A DNA stretch of 64,000 nucleotides from Candidatus Multivorans sp. (GTDB lineage Bacteria; Acidobacteriota; Thermoanaerobaculia; Multivoradales; Multivoraceae), in the NCBI GenBank assembly GCA_965208755.1, contig OZ242353.1, positions 4,974,714 through 5,038,713 on the forward strand. Reading direction: 5' to 3'. This document shows, piece by piece, positions 7,959 to 47,220 of this stretch. The notes beneath the pieces were generated by a model. It saw nothing but the letters and a program-made list of their open reading frames with translations. It did no database searches and was not told where the DNA came from. The translations under genes and the position numbers were made by a program. Position 1 is the first letter of the stretch. Each line of letters starts with the position of its first letter.

Positions 7959-9041
7959 TCATCGCCGGCTCGTCAGCAGCGCCGATCCCACGATTGCCAG
8001 CAGCAGCAACACGCCGCCGCCCCAGAGCAGGATCGGCGAGGCTCCGGTCTCGTCGTACGTGACCACGTCGTCCCTCGGCTCGTCGAAGAGCGAGTCGTAG
8101 GTTGCCGCCGCTGCTCGGGCCGCGGTCGCCGCCGCCGCCATCGCCGCCTCGTCTTCCGGCTGGCCCAGGCCGTCCTCGGCGATGATCCTCTCGACGGTGT
8201 GGACGAGATCCCAGAGCTCGTCCCGGCTGTAGGCGTCGCGATAACCCGGCATCGCCGTGCCGTCCATGCCGAGATAGAGGCGGCTGTAGATGTCGGCGCT
8301 GCGGTTGCCGCCCTTGAAGACCCCGCCGACGATGTTGGTCGGCAGGGTGTGGTTGCCCTCGAAATCCGGCATCGGGTCGTTGCGAAGCCGCCTGCCGTTC
8401 GGGCCGTGGCAGGAAGCGCAGGCCTCCAGGTAGATCCGTTCGCCCCGGGTGCGTCGTTCGTCGTCGAAGGGAGGCTCGGGCGGTATCTCGATCGCCCGCC
8501 CCGGCGTCGTTCGCCTCGCGAACTCCGCGTCGGCGTCCTCGGCGCTCAACTCGCCTGCGGCGACCTCCCGATCGAGTTCGCTCCGGATGGCGTCCAGACT
8601 GAAACTGCGCGTGTAGCGAGCCATCGCCGCGATCTCGGCGTCGGGAACCTGGCCCCAGGCCGACATTCCGGTGCCGGGCATGCCGCGCCGGATCGTCTCT
8701 TCCAGATCGCGGTCCGACGGGATCGAGTTCTCGGTCGTGGCCAGCTTGAACCGGCCCGACTGGAAGCTGCGGGGCCGCTCACCGGTGGTGTAGCTGAACT
8801 TGCCCAGGCCGTCGCCGTCTTCGCCGTGGCACTCGCGGCAGTAGCGGAGGAAGGCTTGCCTGCCTAGGTCGTCGGCATTCACGGCGGAGGTTGGGGGATC
8901 ATCGGCCGTGGTGCCCTGCGCCTTCAAGGTCGGCGGGCCGACAAGCAGAGCTGTCGCGCACAGCACGGCTGCGAGGTTCCATCTGTACGGTTGCGAGAGG
9001 CTCCGCGCCTGGACCGAGCATGACACGATGAAGGGCGTCAC
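7959..9041 (-). CDS. Diheme c-type cytochrome, membrane anchored
   Basis: Two CxxCH motifs (CRECHG and CASCHG). N-terminal signal peptide and a C-terminal hydrophobic helix (ILLWGGGVLLLLAIVGSALL). Confidence 0.7.
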   Translation of the reverse strand: MTPFIVSCSVQARSLSQPYRWNLAAVLCATALLVGPPTLKAQGTTADDPPTSAVNADDLGRQAFLRYCRECHGEDGDGLGKFSYTTGERPRSFQSGRFKLATTENSIPSDRDLEETIRRGMPGTGMSAWGQVPDAEIAAMARYTRSFSLDAIRSELDREVAAGELSAEDADAEFARRTTPGRAIEIPPEPPFDDERRTRGERIYLEACASCHGPNGRRLRNDPMPDFEGNHTLPTNIVGGVFKGGNRSADIYSRLYLGMDGTAMPGYRDAYSRDELWDLVHTVERIIAEDGLGQPEDEAAMAAAATAARAAAATYDSLFDEPRDDVVTYDETGASPILLWGGGVLLLLAIVGSALLTSRR

Positions 9042-9364
9042 TCCGGGGATACCGCGCTAGTGGTTCGAGAACATCGATAGTTGGACCCGATACAACGGCA
9101 GCGGCTTCACCGGGCCTCGGTGCCGGTCCATCGCTACTGGCACCCTTTCGACCGCACCTCAGTCCGCTGGCGCCGCCGAGTCTATGTCCGCGGCCGGATG
9201 GGTTCCGGGAGTGGACTCGAGATTCATGAAGATGTTGGCGGCAAGCACGCCGTCCGGTCGAGCGCCCGCGGTACGCGACCGTCCTGGGGACTGGGCACAA
9301 GTCGGGAGTCGTCAGCCCGGTGGTCGTGACAAGAGCGACGTAGCACGATACAACGGCACGTTGA

Positions 9365-11391
9365 TGAGATACGACGTCAGTCGAGCGCTGGCACTGCTCC
9401 GATCTGGTACGGGGCTTCCAGATTCCGCTTTCCGAGCCGGTCAGGAGGAAGCGGTGCGACACGTAGTCCAAGGCCGGGGACGGCTGCTGGTCGTCCAGCG
9501 TACTGGCTGGGGAAAGAGCTTCGTGTACTTCATCGCGGCGAAGCTCCTGCGAGAAGCCGAGATGGGTCCTGCACTGCTTGTGTCGCCACTACTGGCGCTA
9601 ATGCGGAACCAGCTTCTCGCCGCGGAACGGATGGGAGTCCGTGCCGAGAGGATTGACTCGTCGAATCAGGAGGACTGGGAGCGAGTCGAAGGGGCCGTCG
9701 TTGACGGAGCGGTCGACATCTTGCTGATTTCACCTGAGCGGTTGGGCAATCAGCGGTTCGTCGAACGCGTACTCTCCGCAGTCAGTGCCCACATCTCGCT
9801 ACTTGTGATTGATGAGGCGCATTGCATCTCTGATTGGGGGCACGACTTTCGGCCGGATTATCGCCGGATCGGCCGGATCTTGGAGGCCTTGCCACCTTCG
9901 CTTCGTCTGCTGGGCACGACGGCAACAGCGAACAACCGCGTCGTTCACGATCTCCAAGCGGTGCTGGGCCCGAATCTTGCCGTTTCGCGCGGCGACCTGG
10001 CAAGGCCGTCCTTGTCATTGCAGACAATCCGCCTGCGCAGCCAAGCGGAACGCCTCGCGTGGTTGGCGGAGCAGGTACCGGCGATGCAGGGCAGCGGCAT
10101 CATCTACGCGTTGACGGTGCGCGACGCCGAGCAGGTGGCTGAGTGGCTTCGTAGCCGCAGTCTCGCGGTGGAGGCCTACACGGGAGAGACCGCCGATCGC
10201 CCGACACTCGAGCAGGCGCTCCTCGACAACGACTTGAAGGCTCTGGTCGCGACGTCGGCGCTGGGCATGGGCTTCGACAAGCCCGATCTCGGCTTCGTCG
10301 TTCACTACCAGGCACCCGGCTCGGTGGTGACCTACTATCAGCAGGTGGGCCGCGCTGGCCGGGCGCTCGAATCCGCTTACGGCGTGCTTCTGAGCGGCGA
10401 GGAGGAAGAGGACATTACCGACTTCTTCATCGACACGGCGTTCCCGAGCCGCGAGCAGGTCGACACGGTCATTGCGGCACTTGAAGCGACGCCGGGCGGA
10501 CTGTCGAAGCCCATGCTTCTGGAACGCGTGAACATGCGGTCCGGCCGGTTTGATCGTCTTATGAAGATCCTCGCCCTGGAATCGCCGGCGCCCGTCGTCA
10601 AGGAGGGCCCCAGGTGGCAACTGACCGCCGCGACCCTGAGCGACCAGTTCTGGCAGCGGGTGGAGCGCTTGACTGCGCTGCGCCGGCAAGAACAGCAGGA
10701 GATGCAGCGCTACGTCGCCCTGGAGTCGGGGCACATGGAGTTCCTGATTCGGGCACTGGACGGAGATCCGGGCGACGGTGCCGTCGCTCCGCAGGCCGCC
10801 CTTCCAGTAGCGGCCAGCCACCACATGGTGTTGGAGGCGATCGCCTTCCTCAAGGGCGCATTCCAAGAGATCGAGCCTCGAAAAAGGGGGCCGAAGAAGA
10901 TCACTGCGGGACACCGGGCGGAAACTGGGAGGGCGCTGTGCCACTGGCAAGATGCCGGGTGGGGAGAGCTCGTCAGGAGGGGAAAGTACGAGATGGAGCG
11001 CTTTCCGGACGAACTCGTCGATGCCTGCCTCGATCTGGTGCGGACGTGGAATCCGAATCCGGCACCGCGTTGGGTAACCTGCATACCGTCACTACGGCAT
11101 CCCGGTCTGGTTCCCGATTTCGCTGAACGGCTCGCTGTGGCGATGGGGCTGCCCTTCCGGCCGCTATTGGTGAAGACGGAGAACCGCCCCGAGCAGAAGA
11201 CGATGGAGAACAGCGCCCAACAGGTAGCGAACGTCTGGGGCTCGCTTGAGCTGAGCGGTCCACCCTCGGCCGCGCCGGTGCTGCTGGTAGATGACATCGT
11301 CGATTCCCGCTGGACGTTCACGACGGCCGCGTGGCTGTTGAGAAGCGAGGGCAGCGGCGAGGTTTGGCCGTTGGCGCTCGCCCAGGCCTGA
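9365..11391 (+). CDS. RecQ-family DNA helicase fused to a C-terminal ComF-like phosphoribosyltransferase (PRTase) domain
   Basis: Walker A (TGWGKS), RecQ DEAH box (LLVIDEAHCISDWGHDFRPDYRR) and helicase-C (LVATSALGMGFDKPDLGFVVHYQAPGSVVTYYQQVGRAGRA). The C-terminal ~150 aa (…CIPSLRHPGL…FAERLAVAMGLPFRPLLVKT…APVLLVDDIVDSRWTFTTAAWLL) follow the ComF/PRTase PRPP-loop pattern. An alternative upstream start exists at 9184. Confidence 0.75.
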
Positions 11392-11399
11392 ATGCGAAG

Positions 11400-12983
11400 A
11401 TGAGCGAGTCGCTTTCGCAGAACACCAAGGCCATCCTGCTGCTGACGGCTCCGCTCATCGTTGGCCGCGGGGTAGCCAGGGATCGGACCGTGAGGCCGCT
11501 CTCGCTGAGACGCGAGTACTCCGAACTGGCGAGTCGCCTGCGCGAGGTCGGGCGCGAGCCAGCGGACCTGATCGGCGTGGACGATGTCGCTGTGCTCGAC
11601 GAGTGTCTCACGGGCGGCGAGCCTCGAATCGACCGTCAGCGGGTCGAGTCTCTGTTGGCGCGGGGGGTCCAGTTGAGTCTCGCAGTGGAACGGTGGCAGA
11701 CCCGAGCGATCTGGGTCGTAAGCCGAGCCGACCACGACTATCCCAGGCGGCTGAAGGCGCGGCTTCGCGAGAAGGCGCCTCCCGTTCTCTATGGCTGCGG
11801 CGACCGGTCATTGGTGGATAGGGGCGGTTTGGCAGTCGTTGGCCCTCGTGACGTCGGAACAGACCTGATCGACTATGCGCAGGAGGTCGGTGTCCTTGCC
11901 GCGCGGTCAGGCCGCGCCTTGATCTCAGGGGCTGCCAGAGGGGTCGACCGCGCGGCGATGACCGGTGCGCTCACCGCCGGAGGCTGGGCGGTGGGAGTCC
12001 TCGCAAACGACCTCGCCCGGGCCTCAACACAACGAGGGAACAGGGATGCTCTCCTCGATGGGAGACTCGTGCTGGTTTCGCCGTACGATCCCGCAGCGCG
12101 GTTCTTCGCCGGCCACGCGATGGAAAGAAACCACTCCGTCTATAGCCTCGCCGACGCATCGCTGGTCGTCGAGGCGCTGGTCGGCCGGGGAGGCACCTGG
12201 GCTGGTGCCACGGCGCAACTCGACAGGCACCTAGTCTCGCCGGTCTATGTGCGGGCGACCTTGGGTCACTCCGAAGGGCTTGCGGCATTGAGGGCTCGAG
12301 GGGCTCTTCCATGGCCGAATCCTCAGGACCCCGACGAGTTCGCAGCGGCTCTCGATCAGCGCATGGCCGGGACGGTGTTTCCCGGGGAGCAGCGGGCCTT
12401 GAACGCGGAGCTTGAGCCGTCGACTCTCGCAGAACCTCGTCGGGCCGGCGCCGCTGGTCTGTCGGGTGACTCGGTAGAAGCGGAGGATGCCGGCAAGGGC
12501 CCGGGCCTTGCAGATGAGCTCTGGCAAGCGGTTCGCGTAGCGGCCTGGAGAATCTGCCGTGAAGCGACACCGCTGAAGGCTGTCGCTTCAGGATTTGGCT
12601 CAACGGAGCCACAGGCCAAGGAGTGGTCCGGCAGGCTCGTTGCCGAGCGCGTACTACGTCTTGAGCAGAGGCCCGTGAGCTATGTGGCGGGCGAGGTTCC
12701 TCGAGAGTGGGAAGTCAGGAACGAGGCGTGCCAGGTCAAGCCGGTGACTCCAGGCGACGAACTATGGTGCGTGATTCGGGAGCTACTGGTGCGGCTGCTT
12801 GACGAGCCGAGGAGTAGCGAGGAGGTTGCTGGCGAGCTTCGGCTTACGCCCAGGCAGGCGCAACTCTGGCTGAAGCGACTTGCCGATGACGGTGTCTTGG
12901 AGAGGAGCGAGCGTCCAGTCCGCTACGTGGCGCGGACGGCCAACCTCCTGGAGGATGTAGGACCGCTACCCAGCGGCAACTGA
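11400..12983 (+). CDS. DprA/Smf-like DNA-processing protein with C-terminal winged-helix
   Basis: Rossmann-like DprA core (PPVLYGCGDRSLV…GLAVVGPRDVG…ALISGAARGVDRAAMTGALTAGGWAVGVLANDL…LVLVSPYDPAARFFAGHAMERNHSVY). C-terminal wHTH-like segment (SSEEVAGELRLTPRQAQLWLKRLADDGVL). Starts 8 nt after the helicase stop. Confidence 0.7.
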   Translation: MSESLSQNTKAILLLTAPLIVGRGVARDRTVRPLSLRREYSELASRLREVGREPADLIGVDDVAVLDECLTGGEPRIDRQRVESLLARGVQLSLAVERWQTRAIWVVSRADHDYPRRLKARLREKAPPVLYGCGDRSLVDRGGLAVVGPRDVGTDLIDYAQEVGVLAARSGRALISGAARGVDRAAMTGALTAGGWAVGVLANDLARASTQRGNRDALLDGRLVLVSPYDPAARFFAGHAMERNHSVYSLADASLVVEALVGRGGTWAGATAQLDRHLVSPVYVRATLGHSEGLAALRARGALPWPNPQDPDEFAAALDQRMAGTVFPGEQRALNAELEPSTLAEPRRAGAAGLSGDSVEAEDAGKGPGLADELWQAVRVAAWRICREATPLKAVASGFGSTEPQAKEWSGRLVAERVLRLEQRPVSYVAGEVPREWEVRNEACQVKPVTPGDELWCVIRELLVRLLDEPRSSEEVAGELRLTPRQAQLWLKRLADDGVLERSERPVRYVARTANLLEDVGPLPSGN

Positions 12984-13024
12984 TCTCCAAACCCCGAGGT
13001 TCTCGTGGAGACGCGGCACCAAAC

Positions 13025-14602
13025 CTACTCTCCGCCGACCCGCTCCAGGTACACCGCTTCCAGCAGGTCGAGCCTGTCCTTGATCACGCCCGGCGTTGCG
13101 TTGGGCTCCGGCGCGTCGAGCACCATCCAGGTGTCGCTTTCCGCGTCGTACTCCGGCCACTCCGGAGCGCCGTCGCCGTTCGGGTCGCCGGTGGCTGCGA
13201 AACGGGTCCAGTAGGCAGCCATCGCGTCGGCGAGGGCGGCGCCGTCCGCGCCGGGGTAGCGCTCGGCGTCGGGGTCGCCCGTGTCGCCGAAGGCGTAGGC
13301 GACCTCGGAACCGTGGGGGGCGCCGGGGAACGCCTCGCGCTGCGCCTCGGGGACGAACTGGAAGTAGTAGGCGCGCCCCGGCGAGGAGACGGTCTTCATC
13401 TGCTCCGCGAGGTAGCGGGCCGAGATGACGTAGCGCTGGTCGCCGAACAGGGTGGCGGCGGCGACCCGCTCGGCGTCGGCGTCGGATTTGCCGTCCGCTC
13501 CGTAGAGGGAGCGGGCCTGCCCCTCGCGCTTGCCGAAGGTGGCGAAGTGGTCGTTGGGTGTCGTCGCGAAGGCCCGGAAGATGGTCCCCTCGAAACTGTT
13601 GCCGCCGGTGATGTAGGGCACGTCGTGCTGCTCGCCTCGGGCGAACACGATGCCGGGCTCGTCCGGGAGCACGGTCCCCGTGATCGGCACCCAGAAGCCG
13701 GTGCCGAGGTGGATGAGTTCGTCGGACGGAAGCGCGCGCAGGTCGGCGGCCGAGGGCTCGTCTCCGAGATCGAAGGCGTCGGCGATCAGCGCCGACCCCT
13801 GGTCGCGCGCCGAAGGCAGCCCCCAGCGCGCCTCGCTGAGGTGGGGCAACCGCCAGGTGCCGTAGCCGCTCTGGGCGATCGCCCGGTGGAACAGGCCGGC
13901 GGACGCGGGCGTGCTCATCAGCGTGTTCACGGCCATCCCGCCGGCCGAGACGCCGAAGATCGTCACGCGGTCCGGATCGCCGCCGAAGGCCGCGGCGTTG
14001 CGCTGCACCCATTCGAGGGCGGCGATCATGTCGAGCACGCCGTGGCTGCCCTCGGGCTGCCCGGAAGCCGCGGCTTCGGCGGCCAGGGCGGGATGGGCGA
14101 AGAAGCCGAGGGCGCCCAGGCGGTACTGGATGCTGACGATGACGACGCCACGGCCTGCGAGGCCGGCGCCGCGGCCCGTCGCTGGAGCTTCGCCAAGCCG
14201 GCCGTTTCCGGTCCGGAAGCCGCCGCCGTGGATCCAGACCATGACCGGCATCGCGTCCGAGTCGGAGCGCTCGGCCGACGTCCAGACGTTCAGGTACAGG
14301 CAATTCTCGCTCTGGGGGAGCTGGGCGCGGCCCTGCGGGCAGATGGGACGGTACTCGTTGGCCTGGAGAGGCTCCGTCCAGGGCTCAACGGCTACGGGCG
14401 GCCGCCAGCGCAGGTGGCCCTCGGGGGCCTGCGCGAAGGGGATGCCGAGAAAGGCCGCGACATCGCTGGCGCCCTCGGGCGCGAAGCCCTGGACGGGGCC
14501 GGCGTCGCTCTGGACCAGGAAGGGGTCGGACGGTTCGGCGGCGCAGGCGAGGAGGAGAGGGAGGACGAGGGCGAGGAGGGGGGTGGATCGGGTCTTCATC
14601 AT
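13025..14602 (-). CDS. Carboxylesterase type B (secreted)
   Basis: Signal peptide. VMVWIHGGGF oxyanion-hole motif and GVSAGG nucleophile elbow (GxSxG). 525 aa. Confidence 0.8.
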   Translation of the reverse strand: MMKTRSTPLLALVLPLLLACAAEPSDPFLVQSDAGPVQGFAPEGASDVAAFLGIPFAQAPEGHLRWRPPVAVEPWTEPLQANEYRPICPQGRAQLPQSENCLYLNVWTSAERSDSDAMPVMVWIHGGGFRTGNGRLGEAPATGRGAGLAGRGVVIVSIQYRLGALGFFAHPALAAEAAASGQPEGSHGVLDMIAALEWVQRNAAAFGGDPDRVTIFGVSAGGMAVNTLMSTPASAGLFHRAIAQSGYGTWRLPHLSEARWGLPSARDQGSALIADAFDLGDEPSAADLRALPSDELIHLGTGFWVPITGTVLPDEPGIVFARGEQHDVPYITGGNSFEGTIFRAFATTPNDHFATFGKREGQARSLYGADGKSDADAERVAAATLFGDQRYVISARYLAEQMKTVSSPGRAYYFQFVPEAQREAFPGAPHGSEVAYAFGDTGDPDAERYPGADGAALADAMAAYWTRFAATGDPNGDGAPEWPEYDAESDTWMVLDAPEPNATPGVIKDRLDLLEAVYLERVGGE

Positions 14603-40315: not shown

Positions 40316-41470
40316 ATGAGGGCCGGCGATCCCGGATGGAGAGGCGGGAGGGCCGCGGGTCTGCTGTGCGCTCTGGCGCTGGTTGTCGTTCCGGCCGATG
40401 GCCAGCGGTCCGCGATAGAGGTCTTCGGCGGCGGCGCGGTCACGGAAGGGATGCCCGCCGTGTTCACGGTGACCGCCAATCCCGCCCCGGTTTCGGACCT
40501 CGCCGTGACCGTCTTCGTCAATGACGATTTCACGAGCGACTTCGTTGCCGAGAGCGACGAGGGCATGAAGGTGCTCACGATTCGTGCCGGCGAATCGGCG
40601 GCGGTCTGGTCCGTGCCGACCGTCGACGACGCCGAGGAGGAAGCGGACGGCATCGTGGAACTGTTTCCCTGGCCGGGTGGAGGCGACTACGACCTGGGGC
40701 CGACGCACGAGGCCAGCATTGTCGTGAGGGACAACGATTCACCAGGGGGTGTGCCTCCTCCTCCTCCTCCTCCTCCTCCTCCTCCGCCCGAGCCGGAGCC
40801 CGAGCCGGAGCCCGAGCCCGAGCCGGTCGGTCCGCTGGAGGCGGACTTCGCGGTGGAGGGCGCCGACTGTTCCTCGGATCCGTGCCGGCTGCTGACGGGC
40901 GTTCGCGTGGCCTTTTCCGACTTGAGCAGCGGCGGCGTCATCGATTGGCTCTGGAGCTTCGGGGACGGGGAGACGTCCCGGAGGTCGTCGCCGGTTTACG
41001 AGTATCGTTCGCCGGGCTTCTACGAGGTGTCGTTGACGGTGAGCGACGGGACCGAGGAATCGGTGGCGACCCGCGTCTTTCTGGTGGATCCCGGCGAGCC
41101 CGAGGGCGTTTGCGCGGGCGACGCGGCCACCCGCTGTCTGCGGAACTCCCGGTTCGCGGTCGAGGTGGAGTGGAGGGGGCCGGACGGAACCGTCGGCGAC
41201 GGGCGGGTGGTCCACGCCGGCACGAACGATTCGGCGCTGTTCTCGTTCTTCGACCCGACGAACTGGGAGGTGCTGGTCAAGGTTCTGGACGGTTGCCGGG
41301 TGAACCGCGGCTTCTGGGTGTTCGCCGCGTCGACGACGGACCTGGAGTTCACGATCCGGGTGACCGATACGGTGACCGGGTTTTCTCGCGCGTACTCGAA
41401 CGAGGCGGGCGTCGCCGCCCCCGCCGTCACCGACACCGAAGCCTTCCTGAGAGCCTGTGCCAGCCGCTAG
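40316..41470 (+). CDS. Array gene J. Diverged member without the N-domain: signal peptide + Calx-beta-like domain + P/PE linker + PKD + C-domain.
   Basis: Start taken at MRAGDPGWRGGRAAGLLCALALVVVPA; the ORF is open upstream to 40163. C-domain is CLRNSRFAVEVEWRGPDG…AFLRACASR, about 80% identical to the canonical copies. Confidence 0.65.
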   Translation: MRAGDPGWRGGRAAGLLCALALVVVPADGQRSAIEVFGGGAVTEGMPAVFTVTANPAPVSDLAVTVFVNDDFTSDFVAESDEGMKVLTIRAGESAAVWSVPTVDDAEEEADGIVELFPWPGGGDYDLGPTHEASIVVRDNDSPGGVPPPPPPPPPPPPEPEPEPEPEPEPVGPLEADFAVEGADCSSDPCRLLTGVRVAFSDLSSGGVIDWLWSFGDGETSRRSSPVYEYRSPGFYEVSLTVSDGTEESVATRVFLVDPGEPEGVCAGDAATRCLRNSRFAVEVEWRGPDGTVGDGRVVHAGTNDSALFSFFDPTNWEVLVKVLDGCRVNRGFWVFAASTTDLEFTIRVTDTVTGFSRAYSNEAGVAAPAVTDTEAFLRACASR

Positions 41471-44144
41471 GACGCGTCGACCGAGCTTGAGCGCGGCCCG
41501 CGGCCGCGGCCTTCTGCTGCTTGCGGCGGGCCTTGCGGCCGCGCCGGCCGTCGGCGAGCCCGAGGCCTGTCCGACGCCGGGCGGCGCGCCGGCGCCCGAG
41601 GCGGTCCCGGTCACGGCGACGCCTATCCGGGTCGCTTCGGCGCCGACGGACTACTTCGTCCTCTACGCCGGCCACGAGGTCTCGGGCGAAGAGCGCGAGG
41701 TTCCGGTCGCGGTCGTCCGCGGGCAGGCCGGCACGACGACGCTTGGAGAGAACGTCGCCGCGCTGCCGGTCTCGCGCTATCGTGTGGAGAAGTACCGGGT
41801 TGGCGATCCGGCGGACGTGGATGGCGACTGCATCGACGATCTCGCCGACTCCAACCCGGTCAACGCCGCGCCCCCGATCGACCCGGTCGACGGCGCCGTG
41901 CTGCTCGAGGACGCCGCCAGCTTCGAGGCCCTGGCCTTCGATCACCCCCAGACCGGCAACTCGTACCTCAAGCTGCTGGTGTTCGACTGGGAAACCGATC
42001 GCCCCGGCGTCTACTTTCAGAACGCGAAGACCCATCCCGGCCACTTCACGTTCGCGGCGAAGATAGGGCGATCGCTGAACGAGATCATCGCCTTCGAACT
42101 GGACTACGACCCGAATCTCGTCGCCCCGGACGGAACCCGCGGCGTCTACTACTACTACTGGTCCCTTCTTCAGGACGCGCGGTTCGCCGATCTCGTTCCC
42201 TGGTTCCACACCGTGCTCGCGGCCAGCATGCCGTTGATCGACGACAACCTGGCCTTCTACGTTCCGAACTCGCTGCTTCCGCACGTGCAGCCCTGGCTGT
42301 CGGCCTGGAGCGCTTCCCGAGTGCGGCTTCTGTTCGAGGACGACCTGTCAGGCCCCGACGCCGACTTCGTCGCGCTGAATCCGGGCGTTGGGCTGGGCCT
42401 GCTGCGCGCGCTGGAACCGGACGAACGGCCCCATCCTCGCGATATCGGGCTCTACGAGACGCTGCCCAACGAGCTGCCGCGGCTGGCTGGCATCATCAGC
42501 GCGACGCCGCAGACGCCCTTGTCCCATGTCAATCTCAGGGCCATTCAGAGCGGCATTCCCAATGCCTACGTTCGCGGCGCGCTGGAGGACCCGGACATCG
42601 ACTCGCTGCTCGACAGCTACGTCCGCTACACGGTTACCGCGGACGGCTGGTCGCTGCGCGAGGCGACGGTCGAAGAGGTGCTCGACCACTACGCCGACTC
42701 CCGTCCGCCGGCGCCGCAAACGCCCGAAAGGGATCTGTCGGTTCGGGAGATCGCGCCACTCCGCCGCGTGTCCTTCGACGACTGGGATGCGTTCGGCGTC
42801 AAGGCCGCGAACGTCGCGGAACTGGGCCGGCTCGGCTTTCCGCCCGGGACGGTCCCCGAGGGGTTCGCCATTCCCTTCGCGTTCTACGACGAGTTCATGA
42901 AGGCGAACGGCCTGTACGACGAGGTCCGGGAGATGTTGGCGGAACCCGGATTCAGCGGCGACTTCGATCTCCAGGAGAAGCGCCTGAAGGACCTCCGTTC
43001 GAGAATCCGGAAAGCCGAGACGGCGGAGTGGATGATCGAGGCGCTGCGGGAGATGCACGCTTCCTGGCCGGACAGCGACCAGTCTCTGCGCTATCGGTCG
43101 AGTACGAACAACGAGGACCTTCCCGGCTTCAATGGCGCCGGGCTCTACGATTCCTACACGCAGCACCCGGAGGAGACGGTCGAAGACGGGATCGACAAAT
43201 CGCTCAAGCAGGTGTTCTCGAGTCTCTGGAACTTCCGCGCGTTCACGGAGCGCGAGTTCTTCCGCATCGATCATCTGGAGGCGGCGATGGGGGTGCTGGT
43301 CCACCCCAACTTCGAGGACGAACGGGCGAACGGGGTGGCCGTCAGTTTCGATCCATTCTTCGGGCGGCCCACTCACTACTACGTGAACACGCAGCTCGGA
43401 GAGGATCTCGTCACGAATCCGGAAGCGCGTTCGGTGCCCGAGGAACTTCTCCTGTCGAAGACGGGAACGGGCGACGATCTCTTCGTCGTCCTGGCCCTCT
43501 CCAACCTGGCGCCGCCCGGGGAGCTTCTGATGAGCGAGAGCCAGCTCGATCAGTTGCGCCGGCACCTCTCGACGATTCACGACCACTTCCAAAGTCTCTA
43601 CGGTCCTGCTCCAGGCGAGCGCTTCGCCATGGAGATCGAATTCAAGATCACGAAGGACGACGTTCTCTCGATCAAGCAGGCGCGTCCCTGGGTCTTCGGG
43701 ACCGGGGTTGACGGCGAGCCGCCGCCGCCGGACGGCGCCTGCGTGGCCGACGACGTGACGCTCTGTCTCCTGAACTCCCGTTTCGCGGTCACGGTGGAAT
43801 GGTCGAACCCGGAAGGCCGGCAGGGGCCGGGCTTTGCCGTTCATGAAGGAACCGGCGATTCCGGCCTGTTCCGGTTCTTCGACTCCGAGAACTGGGAAGT
43901 GCTGATCAAGGTGCTCGACGGCTGCGAGGCGAACGGACGAGCGTGGGTGTTCGCGGCATCGACGACGGATCTCGGCCTCGTGATTCGCGTCGAGGACACG
44001 GCGCCGGGTTCGACGGATCCTCCCCGGGAGTACGCGAGCCGGCCGGGAACCGCGGCGCCGGCGATCACGGACACCGCCGCTTTCCGGGATGTTTGCCGTG
44101 GGCGCGACGAGCTCGGACAGGTCGTCGCCGCCGCCGGACACTGA
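41457..44144 (+). CDS. Array gene K. Chimeric secreted protein: family N-domain (diverged) + PEP-utilizer mobile-domain-like segment + PPDK_N-like (PEP/pyruvate-binding, ATP-grasp) domain + family C-domain (diverged).
   Basis: N-domain motifs retained (YFVLYAGHEV, RYRVEKYRVGDPADVDGDCIDDLADSNPVN, YLKLLVFDW, LVPWFHTVLAASMPL). LPRLAGIISATPQTPLSHVNLRAIQSGIPNAYVRGA resembles the PEP-utilizers swivel domain. LRYRSSTNNEDLPGFNGAGLYDSY matches the PPDK_N VRSSATAEDLP motif. C-terminus is CLLNSRFAVTVEWSNPEG…WEVLIKVLDGC…AFRDVC. Confidence 0.7.
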   Translation: MPAARTRRPSLSAARGRGLLLLAAGLAAAPAVGEPEACPTPGGAPAPEAVPVTATPIRVASAPTDYFVLYAGHEVSGEEREVPVAVVRGQAGTTTLGENVAALPVSRYRVEKYRVGDPADVDGDCIDDLADSNPVNAAPPIDPVDGAVLLEDAASFEALAFDHPQTGNSYLKLLVFDWETDRPGVYFQNAKTHPGHFTFAAKIGRSLNEIIAFELDYDPNLVAPDGTRGVYYYYWSLLQDARFADLVPWFHTVLAASMPLIDDNLAFYVPNSLLPHVQPWLSAWSASRVRLLFEDDLSGPDADFVALNPGVGLGLLRALEPDERPHPRDIGLYETLPNELPRLAGIISATPQTPLSHVNLRAIQSGIPNAYVRGALEDPDIDSLLDSYVRYTVTADGWSLREATVEEVLDHYADSRPPAPQTPERDLSVREIAPLRRVSFDDWDAFGVKAANVAELGRLGFPPGTVPEGFAIPFAFYDEFMKANGLYDEVREMLAEPGFSGDFDLQEKRLKDLRSRIRKAETAEWMIEALREMHASWPDSDQSLRYRSSTNNEDLPGFNGAGLYDSYTQHPEETVEDGIDKSLKQVFSSLWNFRAFTEREFFRIDHLEAAMGVLVHPNFEDERANGVAVSFDPFFGRPTHYYVNTQLGEDLVTNPEARSVPEELLLSKTGTGDDLFVVLALSNLAPPGELLMSESQLDQLRRHLSTIHDHFQSLYGPAPGERFAMEIEFKITKDDVLSIKQARPWVFGTGVDGEPPPPDGACVADDVTLCLLNSRFAVTVEWSNPEGRQGPGFAVHEGTGDSGLFRFFDSENWEVLIKVLDGCEANGRAWVFAASTTDLGLVIRVEDTAPGSTDPPREYASRPGTAAPAITDTAAFRDVCRGRDELGQVVAAAGH

Positions 44145-44187: not shown

Positions 44188-47100
44188 TCAGCCGCGGCCG
44201 CGGCCGACGGTCATCCGCACTTCGCGATCGTTCCGCTCGTCCCGCGGTTCCACCTTGATGGCCTGCACCTCGCGGGGAGTCAACGGCTCGCTCGTGGAGT
44301 AGCCGAGCATGTACTGGCTGCGCAGTTCCTCGCCGATGTGCCCGTAGGCCCGGAACACGGCCTCCATGCTCGCGACGTAGTAAACGCGACCGCCGCTCGC
44401 CTTCGTGATCGCTTCCAGGTCCAGCTTGCGGGGACCGCGCGCCCCGGGGACTTCGGGCTGGCTCATCGAGATGACGTAGATCGGCACGCCGGTGTTCCCG
44501 GCCGTCCGGAAGGTCCGGCGGTAGCCGCTCTGGCTTCCCTGGTCGTCGCCGTCGGTCAGCACGACCAGGGCGCGACGCCCCTGATCCCGGGCGAGGTGCA
44601 CCAGGCTGAACTGGATGGCGTCGTAGAGGGCTGTGAAACCGTCTGCCTGGATCTTCCCGAGGGTGCCGATCAGTTCGGCGACGTCGGCGGTGGTGTCGGA
44701 GAGCAGGCGCGGACGGGAGTCGAAGTCGACGACGAACGCCTGGTCGATCCGGGTCAGGGTGTTGCCGAGGAAGCGGGCCGCCGCCTGCCGGGTGTCCGGC
44801 ATCAGGGCCCACATGCTCTGGGAACTGTCGACCGCCAGGCCGAGCACCAGGGGCACGTCCTCGGCAACCGCGAAGCGCTCGATCGGGATCTCTCTTCGAC
44901 CCGCTCGCAGCACGAAGTCGTCAGGCTCGAGGGTCGTGATCGGCTTGCCCTCGGCGTCGTTGACGACGACGTAGACCTCGACCAGGTTGACCACCGTCTC
45001 GGCCATGGGCGTGTCGGCCGAGAGAAACTCCACGTCTTCGATGATCGTGCCGTCGTCCAGGTAGACCGCGACCCGGGCGAAGTCGGCGCCGGGCAGCGCG
45101 GGACCCGGCAGAACGGTGCGGAACGGAGGCCGCGTCAGGGTGGCCGCGAGACGGTCGTTGCGGTAGAACTCGACCCGGTCGAGAACGCGGCCGCCGGCCA
45201 ACTCGACCTGGGCTTCGACGGCGTAGCGGCCCCCGGGCCCCTCTTCCACTGCCGCGATGCCGACTCCGGCCCGTGTTCGGTGCTCGTTGATCGTCAGTTC
45301 GTCCTCGCTCAGCCATCGGTCCGACCGGTCGTAGGCGACGATCCGGATCGTGTGAGGCACCGCCTCCGGTCCCAGGTCGATCGTGGTCTGGAAGGGCTTG
45401 CGTCGATCGTCAAAGACCTGCTCGCCATCGAGGTAGAACTCCACCCGCCGCACCACGTCGCTCGTGGTCACCGTACTGAAGGACTTCCTGCCGCTGAGTC
45501 CCGACCGCTCGCCGCGAGGCGGGATCAGACGGACCAGACTGGAGCCGGGGCCGGGGTCCAGGAGGTTCGCGCGGCGGGGACCACGGGAGCCGCCGGTCCA
45601 GCCGGCCCGGCGTGCCGCGGCCCTGGCAGCCTGGAGGATCTCGGCCTCGGTCGGTGTGGCCGCAAGCGAACCGGCGCCGGTTTCCGGCACGAGCAGCTCG
45701 ACGTCGCCGCGGTCGTCGAGAGGGTTTGACGCTGTTTCGAGGAACTCGACCCGCCAGCGGTCGTTGCGAAGGTCCTCGACCATCAGGACGAGTTCGTCGA
45801 TGGCCACCGGCAGGTCGAAGAGGGTGCGGAACCGCCATGCGCCTCCCCTGAGCCGGGTTCCGTTTCCCGCGCGGTGAAGCAGGAAAGCCGGTGAATCGAG
45901 GCCGCGGCCGTAGACCGTGAGCCGGAGGGCGTCGCTCGACGGCGGGGGATCGGTGACGGTGGCGAGGCCGTCGAGCGTGACGAACTCGGCGGGCGCGCCC
46001 TCGGTGGCCGACTGGATGCCCTGGGGCAGGAGAACGCCGCGGATCGCGAGTTGGCCGTTGCCTGCGAGGCTGGACCGGTCGCCGTCCCGGCTCAAGGCGT
46101 CGAGGGCGCGGCTGGCGCGCAGGGCGGCGAGGTCAGCCGGCGCCGCGACCGTGGCCCAGCGGCGCGCGGCGACCTCGGGCGGAGGTTCGCCGGACCCGGC
46201 GGTGGAGGCGATGCGCACGTCGATTGGATAAGCGGCCCCGTCGCGAGTGCCGGACGAACGGTAGCGGATCCGCCAGGACGCCTGCAGCCGCTCGATCGCC
46301 GCGGCGAGCTCAGCGCCGTCGGCGAGCGCCTCGCCGCCGGCGGCGTGCGCGAACGCCTCGGCCGACTCAAGCCGTCCGGGCAGGAGACCGTCAACCTCCT
46401 GGGCTGCGGGCGCAAGCTGAAGGGAGTAGACGCGCCATCCGAGCGCCGCGACGGTGCGCGTCAGGCTGCGCTGCCGTCGCTGCTCGCTCAGGGCCGCGCG
46501 TTCGAAAGCCGGCGTGGGCTCGCCGAGGAGCTCCTGGGCGAACGCGTCCGCGTTCAGGTCGGTCGCGTCTCGCACGAGGAACAGGGCCCGCGGCGGCCCG
46601 TCGGCCCAGGTTGCGCCCTCGATCGACTCGAGCAGGTTGGCCCGCTGCCAGCGCAGTGTGTCGAGTTCCAGCAGGACTCCCTCGAGCAGGTCGGCGGTGC
46701 GTAGCGCGTCCGCGTCCGGGTCGCCCGAGCGTGCGTCGGCGGCTGCCCGCAGGTCCCGGCGTCTGTCCAGCAGGACGCCCGCCGCGCCGGCCCGCGTGGC
46801 GACGGCCGCGGCGGCGGTCCGTACCGCTCCGGCATTCGCGGTCGGGGCGAGTTCGACCTCTGCGATCCGGTCGGCAACGATCATCTCGACGTCGCCGAGA
46901 GCCACCAGAGCCTCGGCGGCGTCGCCTACCGCCCCTGCCGCCGCCTCGATGCCCTCGGGCGTCGAGCCCGGCAAGTCGAAGTAGATGACGATTCGCCACC
47001 GCTCCGCCACCGGTTCGACCGACAGAATCTTCCTGCTCGCGCCGTTCTCCAGGAGCTCGACGCTGCCGGCGTCGAGCTGCCGGAGCGGGCCCGGGGCGGG

Positions 47101-47220
47101 GATTTGGAGGATGATCTCGGACTCGCGGTCCCACGTCTGCGCCGCCGCGGCGGGGCAGAGGACAGCGAGTAGCGCGACAACGGTGCCCTGCAGACCGTGC
47201 CGCGAGCAGGTGGAGGTCAT
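44188..47220 (-). CDS. Large secreted von Willebrand factor A (VWA) domain protein
   Basis: 1010 aa. Signal peptide. C-terminal VWA/MIDAS-like region (LVLGLAVDSSQSM…ALVVLTDGDDQGS…). Confidence 0.65.
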   Translation of the reverse strand: MTSTCSRHGLQGTVVALLAVLCPAAAAQTWDRESEIILQIPAPGPLRQLDAGSVELLENGASRKILSVEPVAERWRIVIYFDLPGSTPEGIEAAAGAVGDAAEALVALGDVEMIVADRIAEVELAPTANAGAVRTAAAAVATRAGAAGVLLDRRRDLRAAADARSGDPDADALRTADLLEGVLLELDTLRWQRANLLESIEGATWADGPPRALFLVRDATDLNADAFAQELLGEPTPAFERAALSEQRRQRSLTRTVAALGWRVYSLQLAPAAQEVDGLLPGRLESAEAFAHAAGGEALADGAELAAAIERLQASWRIRYRSSGTRDGAAYPIDVRIASTAGSGEPPPEVAARRWATVAAPADLAALRASRALDALSRDGDRSSLAGNGQLAIRGVLLPQGIQSATEGAPAEFVTLDGLATVTDPPPSSDALRLTVYGRGLDSPAFLLHRAGNGTRLRGGAWRFRTLFDLPVAIDELVLMVEDLRNDRWRVEFLETASNPLDDRGDVELLVPETGAGSLAATPTEAEILQAARAAARRAGWTGGSRGPRRANLLDPGPGSSLVRLIPPRGERSGLSGRKSFSTVTTSDVVRRVEFYLDGEQVFDDRRKPFQTTIDLGPEAVPHTIRIVAYDRSDRWLSEDELTINEHRTRAGVGIAAVEEGPGGRYAVEAQVELAGGRVLDRVEFYRNDRLAATLTRPPFRTVLPGPALPGADFARVAVYLDDGTIIEDVEFLSADTPMAETVVNLVEVYVVVNDAEGKPITTLEPDDFVLRAGRREIPIERFAVAEDVPLVLGLAVDSSQSMWALMPDTRQAAARFLGNTLTRIDQAFVVDFDSRPRLLSDTTADVAELIGTLGKIQADGFTALYDAIQFSLVHLARDQGRRALVVLTDGDDQGSQSGYRRTFRTAGNTGVPIYVISMSQPEVPGARGPRKLDLEAITKASGGRVYYVASMEAVFRAYGHIGEELRSQYMLGYSTSEPLTPREVQAIKVEPRDERNDREVRMTVGRGRG

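Follow-up and report, generated by a model that had tools for sequence, protein, structure and literature searches.

The window analysed here is a 64,000-nucleotide stretch of Candidatus Multivorans sp., an acidobacterium of the class Thermoanaerobaculia. It contains two consecutive genes, psyrT (rqlH) and psyrA (rqlI), between a cytochrome c gene and an esterase gene (Table 1); the original prediction had named both neighbours correctly, as Pfam confirmed. The first gene of the pair is real, but its coordinate had been given as 9365, one nucleotide off, since its ATG lies at 9364. A TTG at 9361 is also in frame, and the frame is open back to 9184; this extension has no counterpart in the relatives, which start at the equivalent of 9364. 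The gene ends with a TGA (11389–11391), and the ATG of psyrA follows exactly 8 nt past this stop, at 11400.

Table 1. Features of the psyrTA locus and its surroundings (positions within the window).
Feature	Position	Strand	Basis
Dihaem cytochrome c	7959–9041	-	Pfam
Cytochrome c–psyrT intergenic region, presumed promoter/regulatory	9042–9363	+	Position
psyrT (rqlH), 675-aa toxin/effector, RecQ-like SF2 helicase + PRTase	9364–11391	+	PADLOC PsyrT, E. coli RqlH identity
Helicase core, residues 22–343	9427–10392	+	Pfam, NCBIfam, PDB RecQ chains, motifs
RqlH-specific linker and degenerate zinc-domain region, residues 344–504	10393–10875	+	Alignment, Cys count
C-terminal type-I PRTase (ComF-like), residues 505–675	10876–11388	+	Profile vs PDB, AF2, Foldseek
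psyrA (rqlI), 527-aa DprA-like antitoxin/partner	11400–12983	+	PADLOC PsyrA, E. coli RqlI identity
N-terminal helical (SAM-like) domain of PsyrA	11400–11702	+	AF2 model
DprA-type Rossmann/SLOG domain of PsyrA, ~residues 104–320	11709–12359	+	Pfam, AF2, Foldseek
Two tandem winged-helix domains of PsyrA	12507–12932	+	AF2 model, internal repeat
Carboxylesterase	13025–14602	-	Pfam

The N-terminal part of PsyrT resembles a RecQ helicase. Pfam recognised DEAD (8.6e-23) and Helicase_C (2.1e-13), the NCBIfam family recQ_fam scored 225 bits, above its cut-off of 219.8, and RecQ chains in the PDB matched the helicase core with an E-value of 4e-51. The translation contains motif 0 (AFRAGQ), GWGKS with the Walker A lysine K51 (codon at 9514–9516), a DEAH box at residues 150–153 (9811–9822) followed by CISDWGHDFRPDY, the RecQ aromatic loop, and motif VI (QQVGRAGR). 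Membership of canonical RecQ, judged on curated cut-offs like the memberships of DprA, DpdF and ShosTA discussed below, was rejected: the cut-off of TIGR01389 is 640 bits, whereas the match reached 254 and covered residues 21–368 only. Pfam RQC and HRDC did not match this gene.

Pfam also gave no match in the linker and zinc-domain region (residues 344–504). PsyrT has 4 cysteines in total and none within residues 155–525; all four zinc-binding cysteines of RecQ and RqlH are missing, and the CGKCSSC of E. coli RqlH is aligned to a gap. With the founding member of the family, RqlH of M. smegmatis, PsyrT shares the ATPase domain, the RqlH-specific linker, the ComF-like PRTase and the lack of an HRDC domain (PMC3378886). 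However, RqlH of both E. coli and M. smegmatis has the four cysteines, which in M. smegmatis form a tetracysteine zinc domain at aa 435–499, and the mycobacterial protein has no RqlI partner, whereas the protein studied here has lost the cysteines and has the partner. This loss is common among relatives. CxxCxxC is missing in 34 of 78 full-length relatives, and every one of the 33 complete relatives with 58% identity or more lacks the zinc cysteines, pairs with PsyrA among them. Hence, the missing cysteines mark a subclade and do not exclude the protein from PsyrTA. The RecQ zinc cluster has thus disappeared from a large PsyrT subclade. Since this tetracysteine module belongs to the helicase unit of RqlH as defined by biochemistry, the helicase function of this subclade is putative.

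For the C-terminal domain, a single-sequence Pfam search gave a sub-threshold match (Pribosyltran, E 0.038). A profile of the family searched against the PDB, the kind of check that had been proposed for this domain, returned PRTase-fold proteins in 30 out of 30 matches, with PRPP synthetase on top (E 0.0019). This is further supported by the AF2 model (pLDDT 80.5), for which all 28 Foldseek matches at E ≤ 0.001 were PRTases, among them APRT (3.9e-5), H. pylori ComF (7p0h, 1.7e-4), PurF and ShosT (8zvd, TMq 0.58, rmsd 3.2). The PRPP-binding loop VLLVDDIVDSRWT occupies residues 639–651 (11278–11316) and is almost invariant in 120 homologues; its DDIVD (643–647) aligns with the DDIVD of E. coli RqlH. 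A RecQ-like helicase joined to a ComF-like PRTase, as originally proposed for this gene, is therefore borne out by Pfam and NCBIfam, by the PDB profile search and by the structural model.

The second gene was predicted to be DprA/Smf-like with a winged helix, and here too the assignment stands, although there are two winged-helix domains rather than one. Pfam matched DNA_processg_A at 4.4e-30, above the cut-off, and the SLOG family LDcluster4 at 1.9e-9. The PsyrA model resembled DprA of S. pneumoniae most (1.4e-12), then ShosA (8zva, 1.5e-11), followed by MoCo-carrier and LOG proteins. A true DprA was rejected, with TIGR00732 at 71.8 bits (cut-off 191) and PRK10736 at 51.8 (cut-off 495). The winged helices (residues 370–430, nt 12507–12689, and residues 451–511, nt 12750–12932) each show the elements H-H-H-beta-beta at pLDDT ~88–92 and share 39% identity (E 7e-10); the second copy also has weak Pfam HTH matches. 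Ahead of them lies a disordered linker of ~45 residues (323–367). This differs from E. coli RqlI (400 aa), which has one HTH, and homologues of PsyrA carry 0, 1 or 2 wHTH domains. Their probable function is DNA binding, which would serve autoregulation or tethering. The zinc-less, double-wHTH form of PsyrTA could be a functionally distinct subtype, although we consider this unlikely.

Membership of the pair in PsyrTA, which is the same system as RqlHI, is clear. PADLOC, one of the checks proposed at the outset, matched both profiles essentially end to end: PsyrT (PDLC03928) with an E-value of 1.2e-263 over residues 3–674, corresponding to positions 3–683 of 689 in the profile, and PsyrA with 3.7e-120 over residues 5–429. 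PsyrT is 47% identical to E. coli RqlH over its full length, and PsyrA 37% identical to E. coli RqlI across residues 4–421. All residues with demonstrated importance in E. coli RqlH are conserved, with K49, D148 and DIVD663 corresponding to the Walker A lysine K51, D150 of the DEAH box and the DDIVD of the PRPP loop. The order of toxin then antitoxin with an 8-nt gap is that of most of 83 loci, where a psyrA homologue lies directly downstream of psyrT, and the same order has been reported for all rqlHI pairs. In addition, the locus shares with RqlH-RqlI of E. coli F11 and PsyrTA of P. syringae the DprA/SLOG plus HTH architecture of the antitoxin and the accessory, defence-island context. It differs in its acidobacterial host.

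The architecture had been considered absent from described systems. This is contradicted by the full-length profile matches together with three lines of published experiments. M. smegmatis RqlH has biochemically demonstrated helicase activity (PMC3378886). In E. coli, RqlH was toxic in a manner that depended on its PRTase, RqlI neutralised this toxicity, and the two proteins interacted physically (PMC4670107). Homologous PsyrTA protected against phages, and its delta-psyrA form was untransformable (Millman et al. 2022, bioRxiv 10.1101/2022.05.11.491447). One study in a native host, E. coli, found PsyrTA protection undetectable against the phages tested. Because the system was described before, the find is genuine but not new; PADLOC or DefenseFinder would label these genes PsyrTA, and the discovery value is small. 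The toxin-antitoxin and anti-phage reading itself was right, in that the locus belongs to a published system of this kind, and we consider it very probable that the locus is a two-gene PsyrTA module acting in this way. That the acidobacterial copy is active is our inference.

The kinship with ShosTA that had been suggested is also real. Millman et al. group PsyrTA and ShosTA together (bioRxiv 10.1101/2022.05.11.491447), and the two have in common a PRTase toxin domain, a DprA-like (SAM plus Rossmann) antitoxin, an anti-phage role and a toxicity that in ShosTA leads to DNA damage and filamentation. PsyrA matches ShosA profiles at 3e-18 and 9e-6, in agreement with the structural matches to ShosT and ShosA given above. 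Yet, assignment to ShosTA itself, or to a new ShosTA-derived system with a newly fused helicase, is extremely improbable. ShosT has no helicase and its PRTase is coupled with pyrophosphatase activity, whereas here a helicase of 500 residues is joined to the PRTase; PsyrT matches a family profile of its own over the full length, and its 25 best PADLOC matches do not include ShosT. For the antitoxin, the PsyrA profile (4e-120) is 100 orders of magnitude better than that of ShosA (3e-18). Nor is the fusion new, since helicase-PRTase proteins were described in 2012 (PMC3378886) and are found in thousands of proteins.

The same trio of helicase, PRTase and DprA-fold domains occurs in ComFA/ComFC with DprA, a parallel that has already been drawn in the literature. 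The locus might accordingly be read as a natural-transformation module that processes incoming ssDNA, and it would suit this reading that H. pylori ComF ranks third among the structural matches to the PRTase domain and DprA first among those to PsyrA. However, ComFA, ComFC and DprA are separate proteins, their helicase is from another family, and they occur among competence genes; none of this applies to the locus. The helicase belongs to the RecQ type and not to that of ComFA, PsyrA scores far under the cut-off of the DprA equivalog, E. coli rqlHI strains gave no transformation, and no competence genes were present in any neighbourhood examined, the neighbours being defence genes or unrelated metabolism. 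We therefore give a transformation module next to no credence. Dpd, represented by its helicase DpdF, was rejected as well: NF041063 scored 152 bits (cut-off 550), PADLOC matches to DpdF were far weaker than those to PsyrT, and the neighbours are cytochrome c and esterase.

PsyrT has more than 8000 homologues, which are 65–93% identical across phyla. Identity remains 60–66% in comparisons that span more than 15 phyla; this implies horizontal transfer. In E. coli the pair is accessory, occurring in 1656 of 5426 genomes (30%), with plasmid-borne cases too. In a phage collection we found partial helicase matches only and no full-length PsyrT, so nothing points to a phage-borne origin. The surroundings of homologous pairs, another check that had been proposed, proved variable and rich in defence genes, with BREX, type I and II R-M, Hma, Zorya ZorD, DRT, Gabija GajB and PD-T4-6 among the nearest neighbours at 30 further loci. 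In other phyla, psyrTA often sits inside an hsdMS-hsdR or a pglX-pglZ operon: it lies between hsdS and hsdR on an E. coli IncF plasmid and in Vibrio furnissii, and between pglX and pglZ in Ca. Accumulibacter. It directly follows brxL in a Spirochaetaceae MAG, a Proteiniborus MAG and the three closest BREX-bearing relatives of the window. The present survey thus adds examples of psyrTA inside BREX and type I R-M operons.

This distribution bears on an explanation without any defence role, in which RqlH would be a housekeeping repair or recombination helicase that substitutes for RecQ and PsyrA a DprA-like partner loading RecA, the two acting together on the DNA of the chromosome. M. smegmatis indeed has RqlH and lacks RecQ (PMC3378886), a beneficial, cooperative role on DNA was suggested by Russell and Mulvey, and the DprA fold of PsyrA would fit. 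Stable inheritance at one site across a clade, described below, is compatible with a housekeeping role too. However, the patchy distribution, the horizontal transfer and the repeated embedding in BREX and R-M operons argue against it, as do the atypical GC3 of the pair and its faster divergence than the flanks. Moreover, the PRTase domain of E. coli RqlH is toxic, delta-rqlHI carries no fitness cost, phage protection has been published, and both the dprA and the recQ equivalog stay far below their cut-offs. We consider a housekeeping role very unlikely, and prefer the PsyrTA defence module.

The pair had also been viewed as an inserted two-gene island. Its GC3 is indeed atypical (0.72–0.76, against 0.84–0.92 in the neighbours), but a recent insertion does not hold: at least seven related contigs from Thermoanaerobaculia carry the pair at the same position, which indicates long residence. 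Among these syntenic relatives are a Ca. Multivorans sp. (L004) and a Thermoanaerobaculia bacterium (L022). Compared with L022, PsyrT and PsyrA are 72% and 71% identical, whereas the flanking proteins at the same site are 81–93% identical. In three close relatives (L001, L003 and L086), BREX lies immediately upstream of the pair. Next to the window copy there is neither R-M nor BREX, and tblastn with the BrxL, PglZ, PglX and SMC-like proteins of L001 and L003 found no BREX remnants to the left of psyrT or in the rest of the window. The pair has long resided at a defence hotspot, and the locus places PsyrTA in the Thermoanaerobaculia (Acidobacteriota), at a conserved site where BREX comes and goes.

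A possible mechanism can be drawn from the homologues. PsyrT would act as a RecQ-like 3'-5' DNA helicase or translocase, with the C-terminal PRPP-binding PRTase domain as its toxic effector. PsyrA, the DprA-fold (Rossmann/SLOG) protein of the same operon, would bind PsyrT and hold the PRTase in check. Infection may upset the balance between the two proteins, either because labile PsyrA is lost after host shut-off or because the helicase meets phage DNA structures. The freed PRTase might then damage DNA or nucleotide metabolism, with SOS induction, filamentation and growth arrest, such that phage replication would not be completed.

An alternative to such a free-standing toxin-antitoxin system might be that PsyrTA serves BREX or type I R-M as a functionally coupled back-up (guard) effector. 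This idea is based on the position of psyrTA beside or inside these systems in unrelated phyla. It would resemble PrrC-EcoprrI, where prrC lies inside the EcoprrI hsd operon, much like several psyrTA pairs inside hsd or BREX operons; PrrC is an anticodon nuclease, however, and unrelated to the PsyrTA proteins. We regard a guard function as unlikely. If it were true, the pair in the window would be left as an orphan, at a hotspot that here lacks BREX.

Scans for regulatory and mobility signals gave little. A consensus scan found no sigma-70-like promoter upstream of psyrT, and the only two terminator-like sites lie inside psyrA, at a frequency no higher than in shuffled sequences. No Rfam family matched, no tRNA gene occurs across the whole window, no integrase marks the pair, and no repeats, direct or inverted, convincingly flank the stretch 9042–13024. 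Within the upstream spacer, an exact 13-nt direct repeat, CGATACAACGGCA, is present at 9088–9100 and 9346–9358. Its 11-mer core occurs 3 times in the window, where 0.55 would be expected, and both copies are roughly kept in L004. In L004 and L022, the upstream space contains an ORF for a Phd/YefM-like antitoxin.

Our results show that this locus is a further member of the known PsyrTA/RqlHI family, PsyrTA and RqlHI being one and the same system. Two ORFs, 8 nt apart, occupy positions 9364-12983 of the + strand. The original prediction had the correct end of this interval but a start one base off; the ATG at 9364 is taken as the start of psyrT, because the genes of relatives begin at the equivalent position. 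The identity of both genes rests on PADLOC profiles, which matched the first as PsyrT over its full length (E 1.2e-263) and the second as PsyrA over residues 5-429 (E 3.7e-120). ShosA came a distant second for PsyrA (3e-18). The earlier observation was confirmed, and its reading of the pair as a PRTase/DprA-type toxin-antitoxin defence module related to ShosTA was right in kind. Its architecture is not undescribed, as had been supposed, since both PADLOC and published work point to PsyrTA/RqlHI.

The database protein identical to this PsyrT (P0001) is annotated as 645 aa, with a start 30 codons downstream of the ATG (skipping 9364-9453). Because relatives 72-93% identical keep the longer N-terminus, the public entry probably has its start too far downstream.

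Coordinates of the features discussed (window positions unless a locus of another genome is named)
Feature	Position	Strand	Remark
psyrT (gene A)	ATG 9364 to stop 11389-11391	+	675 aa
psyrA (gene B)	ATG 11400 to 12983	+	527 aa
Dihaem cytochrome c	7959-9041	-	flanks pair
Carboxylesterase	13025-14602	-	flanks pair
13-nt direct repeat	9088-9100 and 9346-9358		psyrT upstream spacer
Segment missing from relatives	19,150-44,190		~25 kb
Tandem array	20,800-41,900		PKD-domain ORFs
PPDK_N-domain gene	41457-44144		after array
VWA/Big_7 gene	44188-47220
Phd/YefM-like ORF	L004 9546-9835; L022 9779-9910		assigned by eye
Stretch with no gene called	L087 12100-13429		1.3 kb
psyrTA inside or directly beside BREX or type I R-M operons	L017 6501-17808; L055 6712-16665; L085 2685-12764	same strand
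The same, further loci	L026, L008, L043, L025, L083, L001/L003/L086	same strand

The window proteins share 47% identity with RqlH and 37% with RqlI of E. coli, and experimentally important residues are kept (K49 as K51, D148 as D150, and DIVD663 as DDIVD 643-647). RqlH of M. smegmatis has 3'-5' helicase activity and carries a ComF/PRTase domain at its C-terminus (PMC3378886). In E. coli the PRTase domain makes RqlH genotoxic, binding by RqlI keeps RqlH in check, and the gene order is invariably rqlH-rqlI (PMC4670107). The PsyrTA pair gives phage protection, and delta-psyrA was untransformable (Millman et al.).

The N-terminal half of PsyrT is a RecQ-type SF2 helicase. It matched Pfam DEAD and Helicase_C as well as NCBIfam recQ_fam above its cut-off, while the RecQ equivalog fell far below cut-off, and RecQ crystal-structure sequences aligned with residues 7-334 (E 4e-51). 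Direct reading of the translation revealed motif 0, GWGKS (K51), DEAH (150-153), the RecQ aromatic loop and motif VI. VLLVDDIVDSRWT lies in the last 170 residues, the C-terminal domain. As a single sequence this domain matched Pfam Pribosyltran at E 0.038 only. A profile built from 22 homologous C-termini, however, retrieved only PRTase-fold proteins from the PDB, in alignments that included the PRPP loop, and the AlphaFold2 model (pLDDT 80.5) had no matches at E<=0.001 other than type I PRTases, among them H. pylori ComF (TMq 0.52) and ShosT (TMq 0.58, rmsd 3.2). Since both approaches recovered PRTases only, the domain was correctly called ComF-like PRTase from the outset.

PsyrA matched Pfam DNA_processg_A (4.4e-30) and also a SLOG family. 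Its AlphaFold2 model begins with a helical domain at the N-terminus; a DprA Rossmann domain comes next, then ~45 disordered residues as a linker, and finally two winged-helix domains that are 39% identical to each other. The best Foldseek matches were S. pneumoniae DprA, ShosA and R. palustris DprA, followed by MoCo-carrier/LOG proteins.

Two features set the window proteins apart from the described prototypes. PsyrT lacks every one of the four RecQ/RqlH zinc-module cysteines, as do all 33 complete relatives at least 58% identical and 34 of the 78 full-length loci overall; the remaining 44, all at most 54% identical, retain CxxCxxC. The winged-helix (wHTH) tail of PsyrA is doubled, where homologues have zero, one or two copies; the HTH of E. 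coli RqlI is not needed for neutralisation (PMC4670107). Both are subclade-level variations of the known system.

By homology, PsyrT would act as a DNA translocase or helicase bearing a PRPP-dependent effector domain, which PsyrA would hold silent by binding PsyrT. Once infection upsets this balance, the PRTase would probably damage DNA and nucleotides and stop growth, so that phage replication is aborted. For ShosTA, antitoxin instability after host shut-off and poisoning of purine metabolism have been described; for the trigger and the PRTase substrate of PsyrTA these are leads only.

By lineage the window belongs to Thermoanaerobaculia (Acidobacteriota), and its synteny with L004 (Ca. Multivorans sp.) and L022 extends to both sides of the pair. 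At least seven related contigs carry psyrTA at the same site, upstream of esterase, M20, PQQ and FAA-hydrolase genes. Cytochrome c precedes the pair in L004, L022, L087 and L088, as in the window. L001, L003 and L086 have, ~25 nt before psyrT, a BREX cluster whose last genes are pglZ-brxL. The window and L001/L003 lose their homology no more than 20 nt from the start of psyrT, and a homology search of the window found no BREX remnant. GC3 is 0.76 for psyrT and 0.72 for psyrA, against 0.84-0.92 for their neighbours. Flanking proteins of L022 are 81-93% identical to those of the window, against 72% for PsyrT and 71% for PsyrA, the latter without a wHTH tail. Given the shared site, the BREX clusters found there, the GC3 and a divergence above that of the flanks, the pair has long resided in a defence hotspot and evolves fast. 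An inserted two-gene island had been proposed; GC3 is atypical, but the shared site in at least seven contigs argues against a fresh insertion. In L087, whose PsyrT is 78% identical, no gene was called at the expected place of psyrA; this gap may mark an antitoxin gene that has been disrupted.

The family is a very large one, with more than 8000 PsyrT homologues identified, the best 120 of which are at least 65% identical yet come from many phyla. Species-representative genomes yielded at least 595 loci. Among 83 loci, a PsyrA homologue lies directly downstream of psyrT in almost every one that has room for it; the exceptions include two Actinomycetota, in agreement with the published Gram-positive pattern (PMC4670107).

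At 30 loci outside the lineage, the nearest two neighbours per side (families counted at E<=1e-15) included BrxL, BrxC, PglX, PglZ and type I/II R-M subunits, as well as HmaB/C, ZorD, DRT, GajB and PD-T4-6. No competence genes were present in any psyrTA neighbourhood examined. With a PRTase-like C-terminal domain and pairs lacking synteny with competence genes, the defence reading stands.

In about a dozen loci psyrTA lies inside or abuts BREX or type I R-M operons, as in hsdM-hsdS-psyrT-psyrA-hsdR of an E. coli IncF plasmid and Vibrio furnissii, and pglX-psyrTA-pglZ-brxL of Ca. Accumulibacter. Such same-strand arrangements, brxL-psyrTA among them, span unrelated phyla and include one on a conjugative plasmid of E. 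coli. Our search of the literature library found no paper pointing out this recurrent embedding.

The spacer upstream of psyrT contains an exact direct repeat, CGATACAACGGCA; the second copy stops 5 nt short of the ATG. L004 has rough counterparts of both copies, differently spaced, and there the first, within a ~60-nt block common to both genomes, ends a short ORF (...WWFENIDTWTRYNGSDFTGP*). The repeat may be a duplication scar, serve as an operator or have arisen by chance. In the syntenic relatives, the space from cytochrome c to psyrT holds an ORF that, judged by eye, is a Phd/YefM-like antitoxin gene; it is 76 aa long in L004 and truncated in L022. In L004 it is followed by an apparent C-terminal remnant of a VapC-like toxin. 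The corresponding window positions (9121-9330) hold unrelated sequence.

Elsewhere in the window lies a segment that none of the syntenic relatives seen has (L001, L003, L004, L022, L086-L088). It includes ~8-9 tandem units of 2.1-2.7 kb with 86-95% nt identity, encoding ORFs of ~900-1150 aa in overlapping frames, and could be either a surface-protein gene family that has been amplified or an artefact of repeat assembly. In those relatives the VWA/Big_7 gene directly follows the FAA-hydrolase gene.
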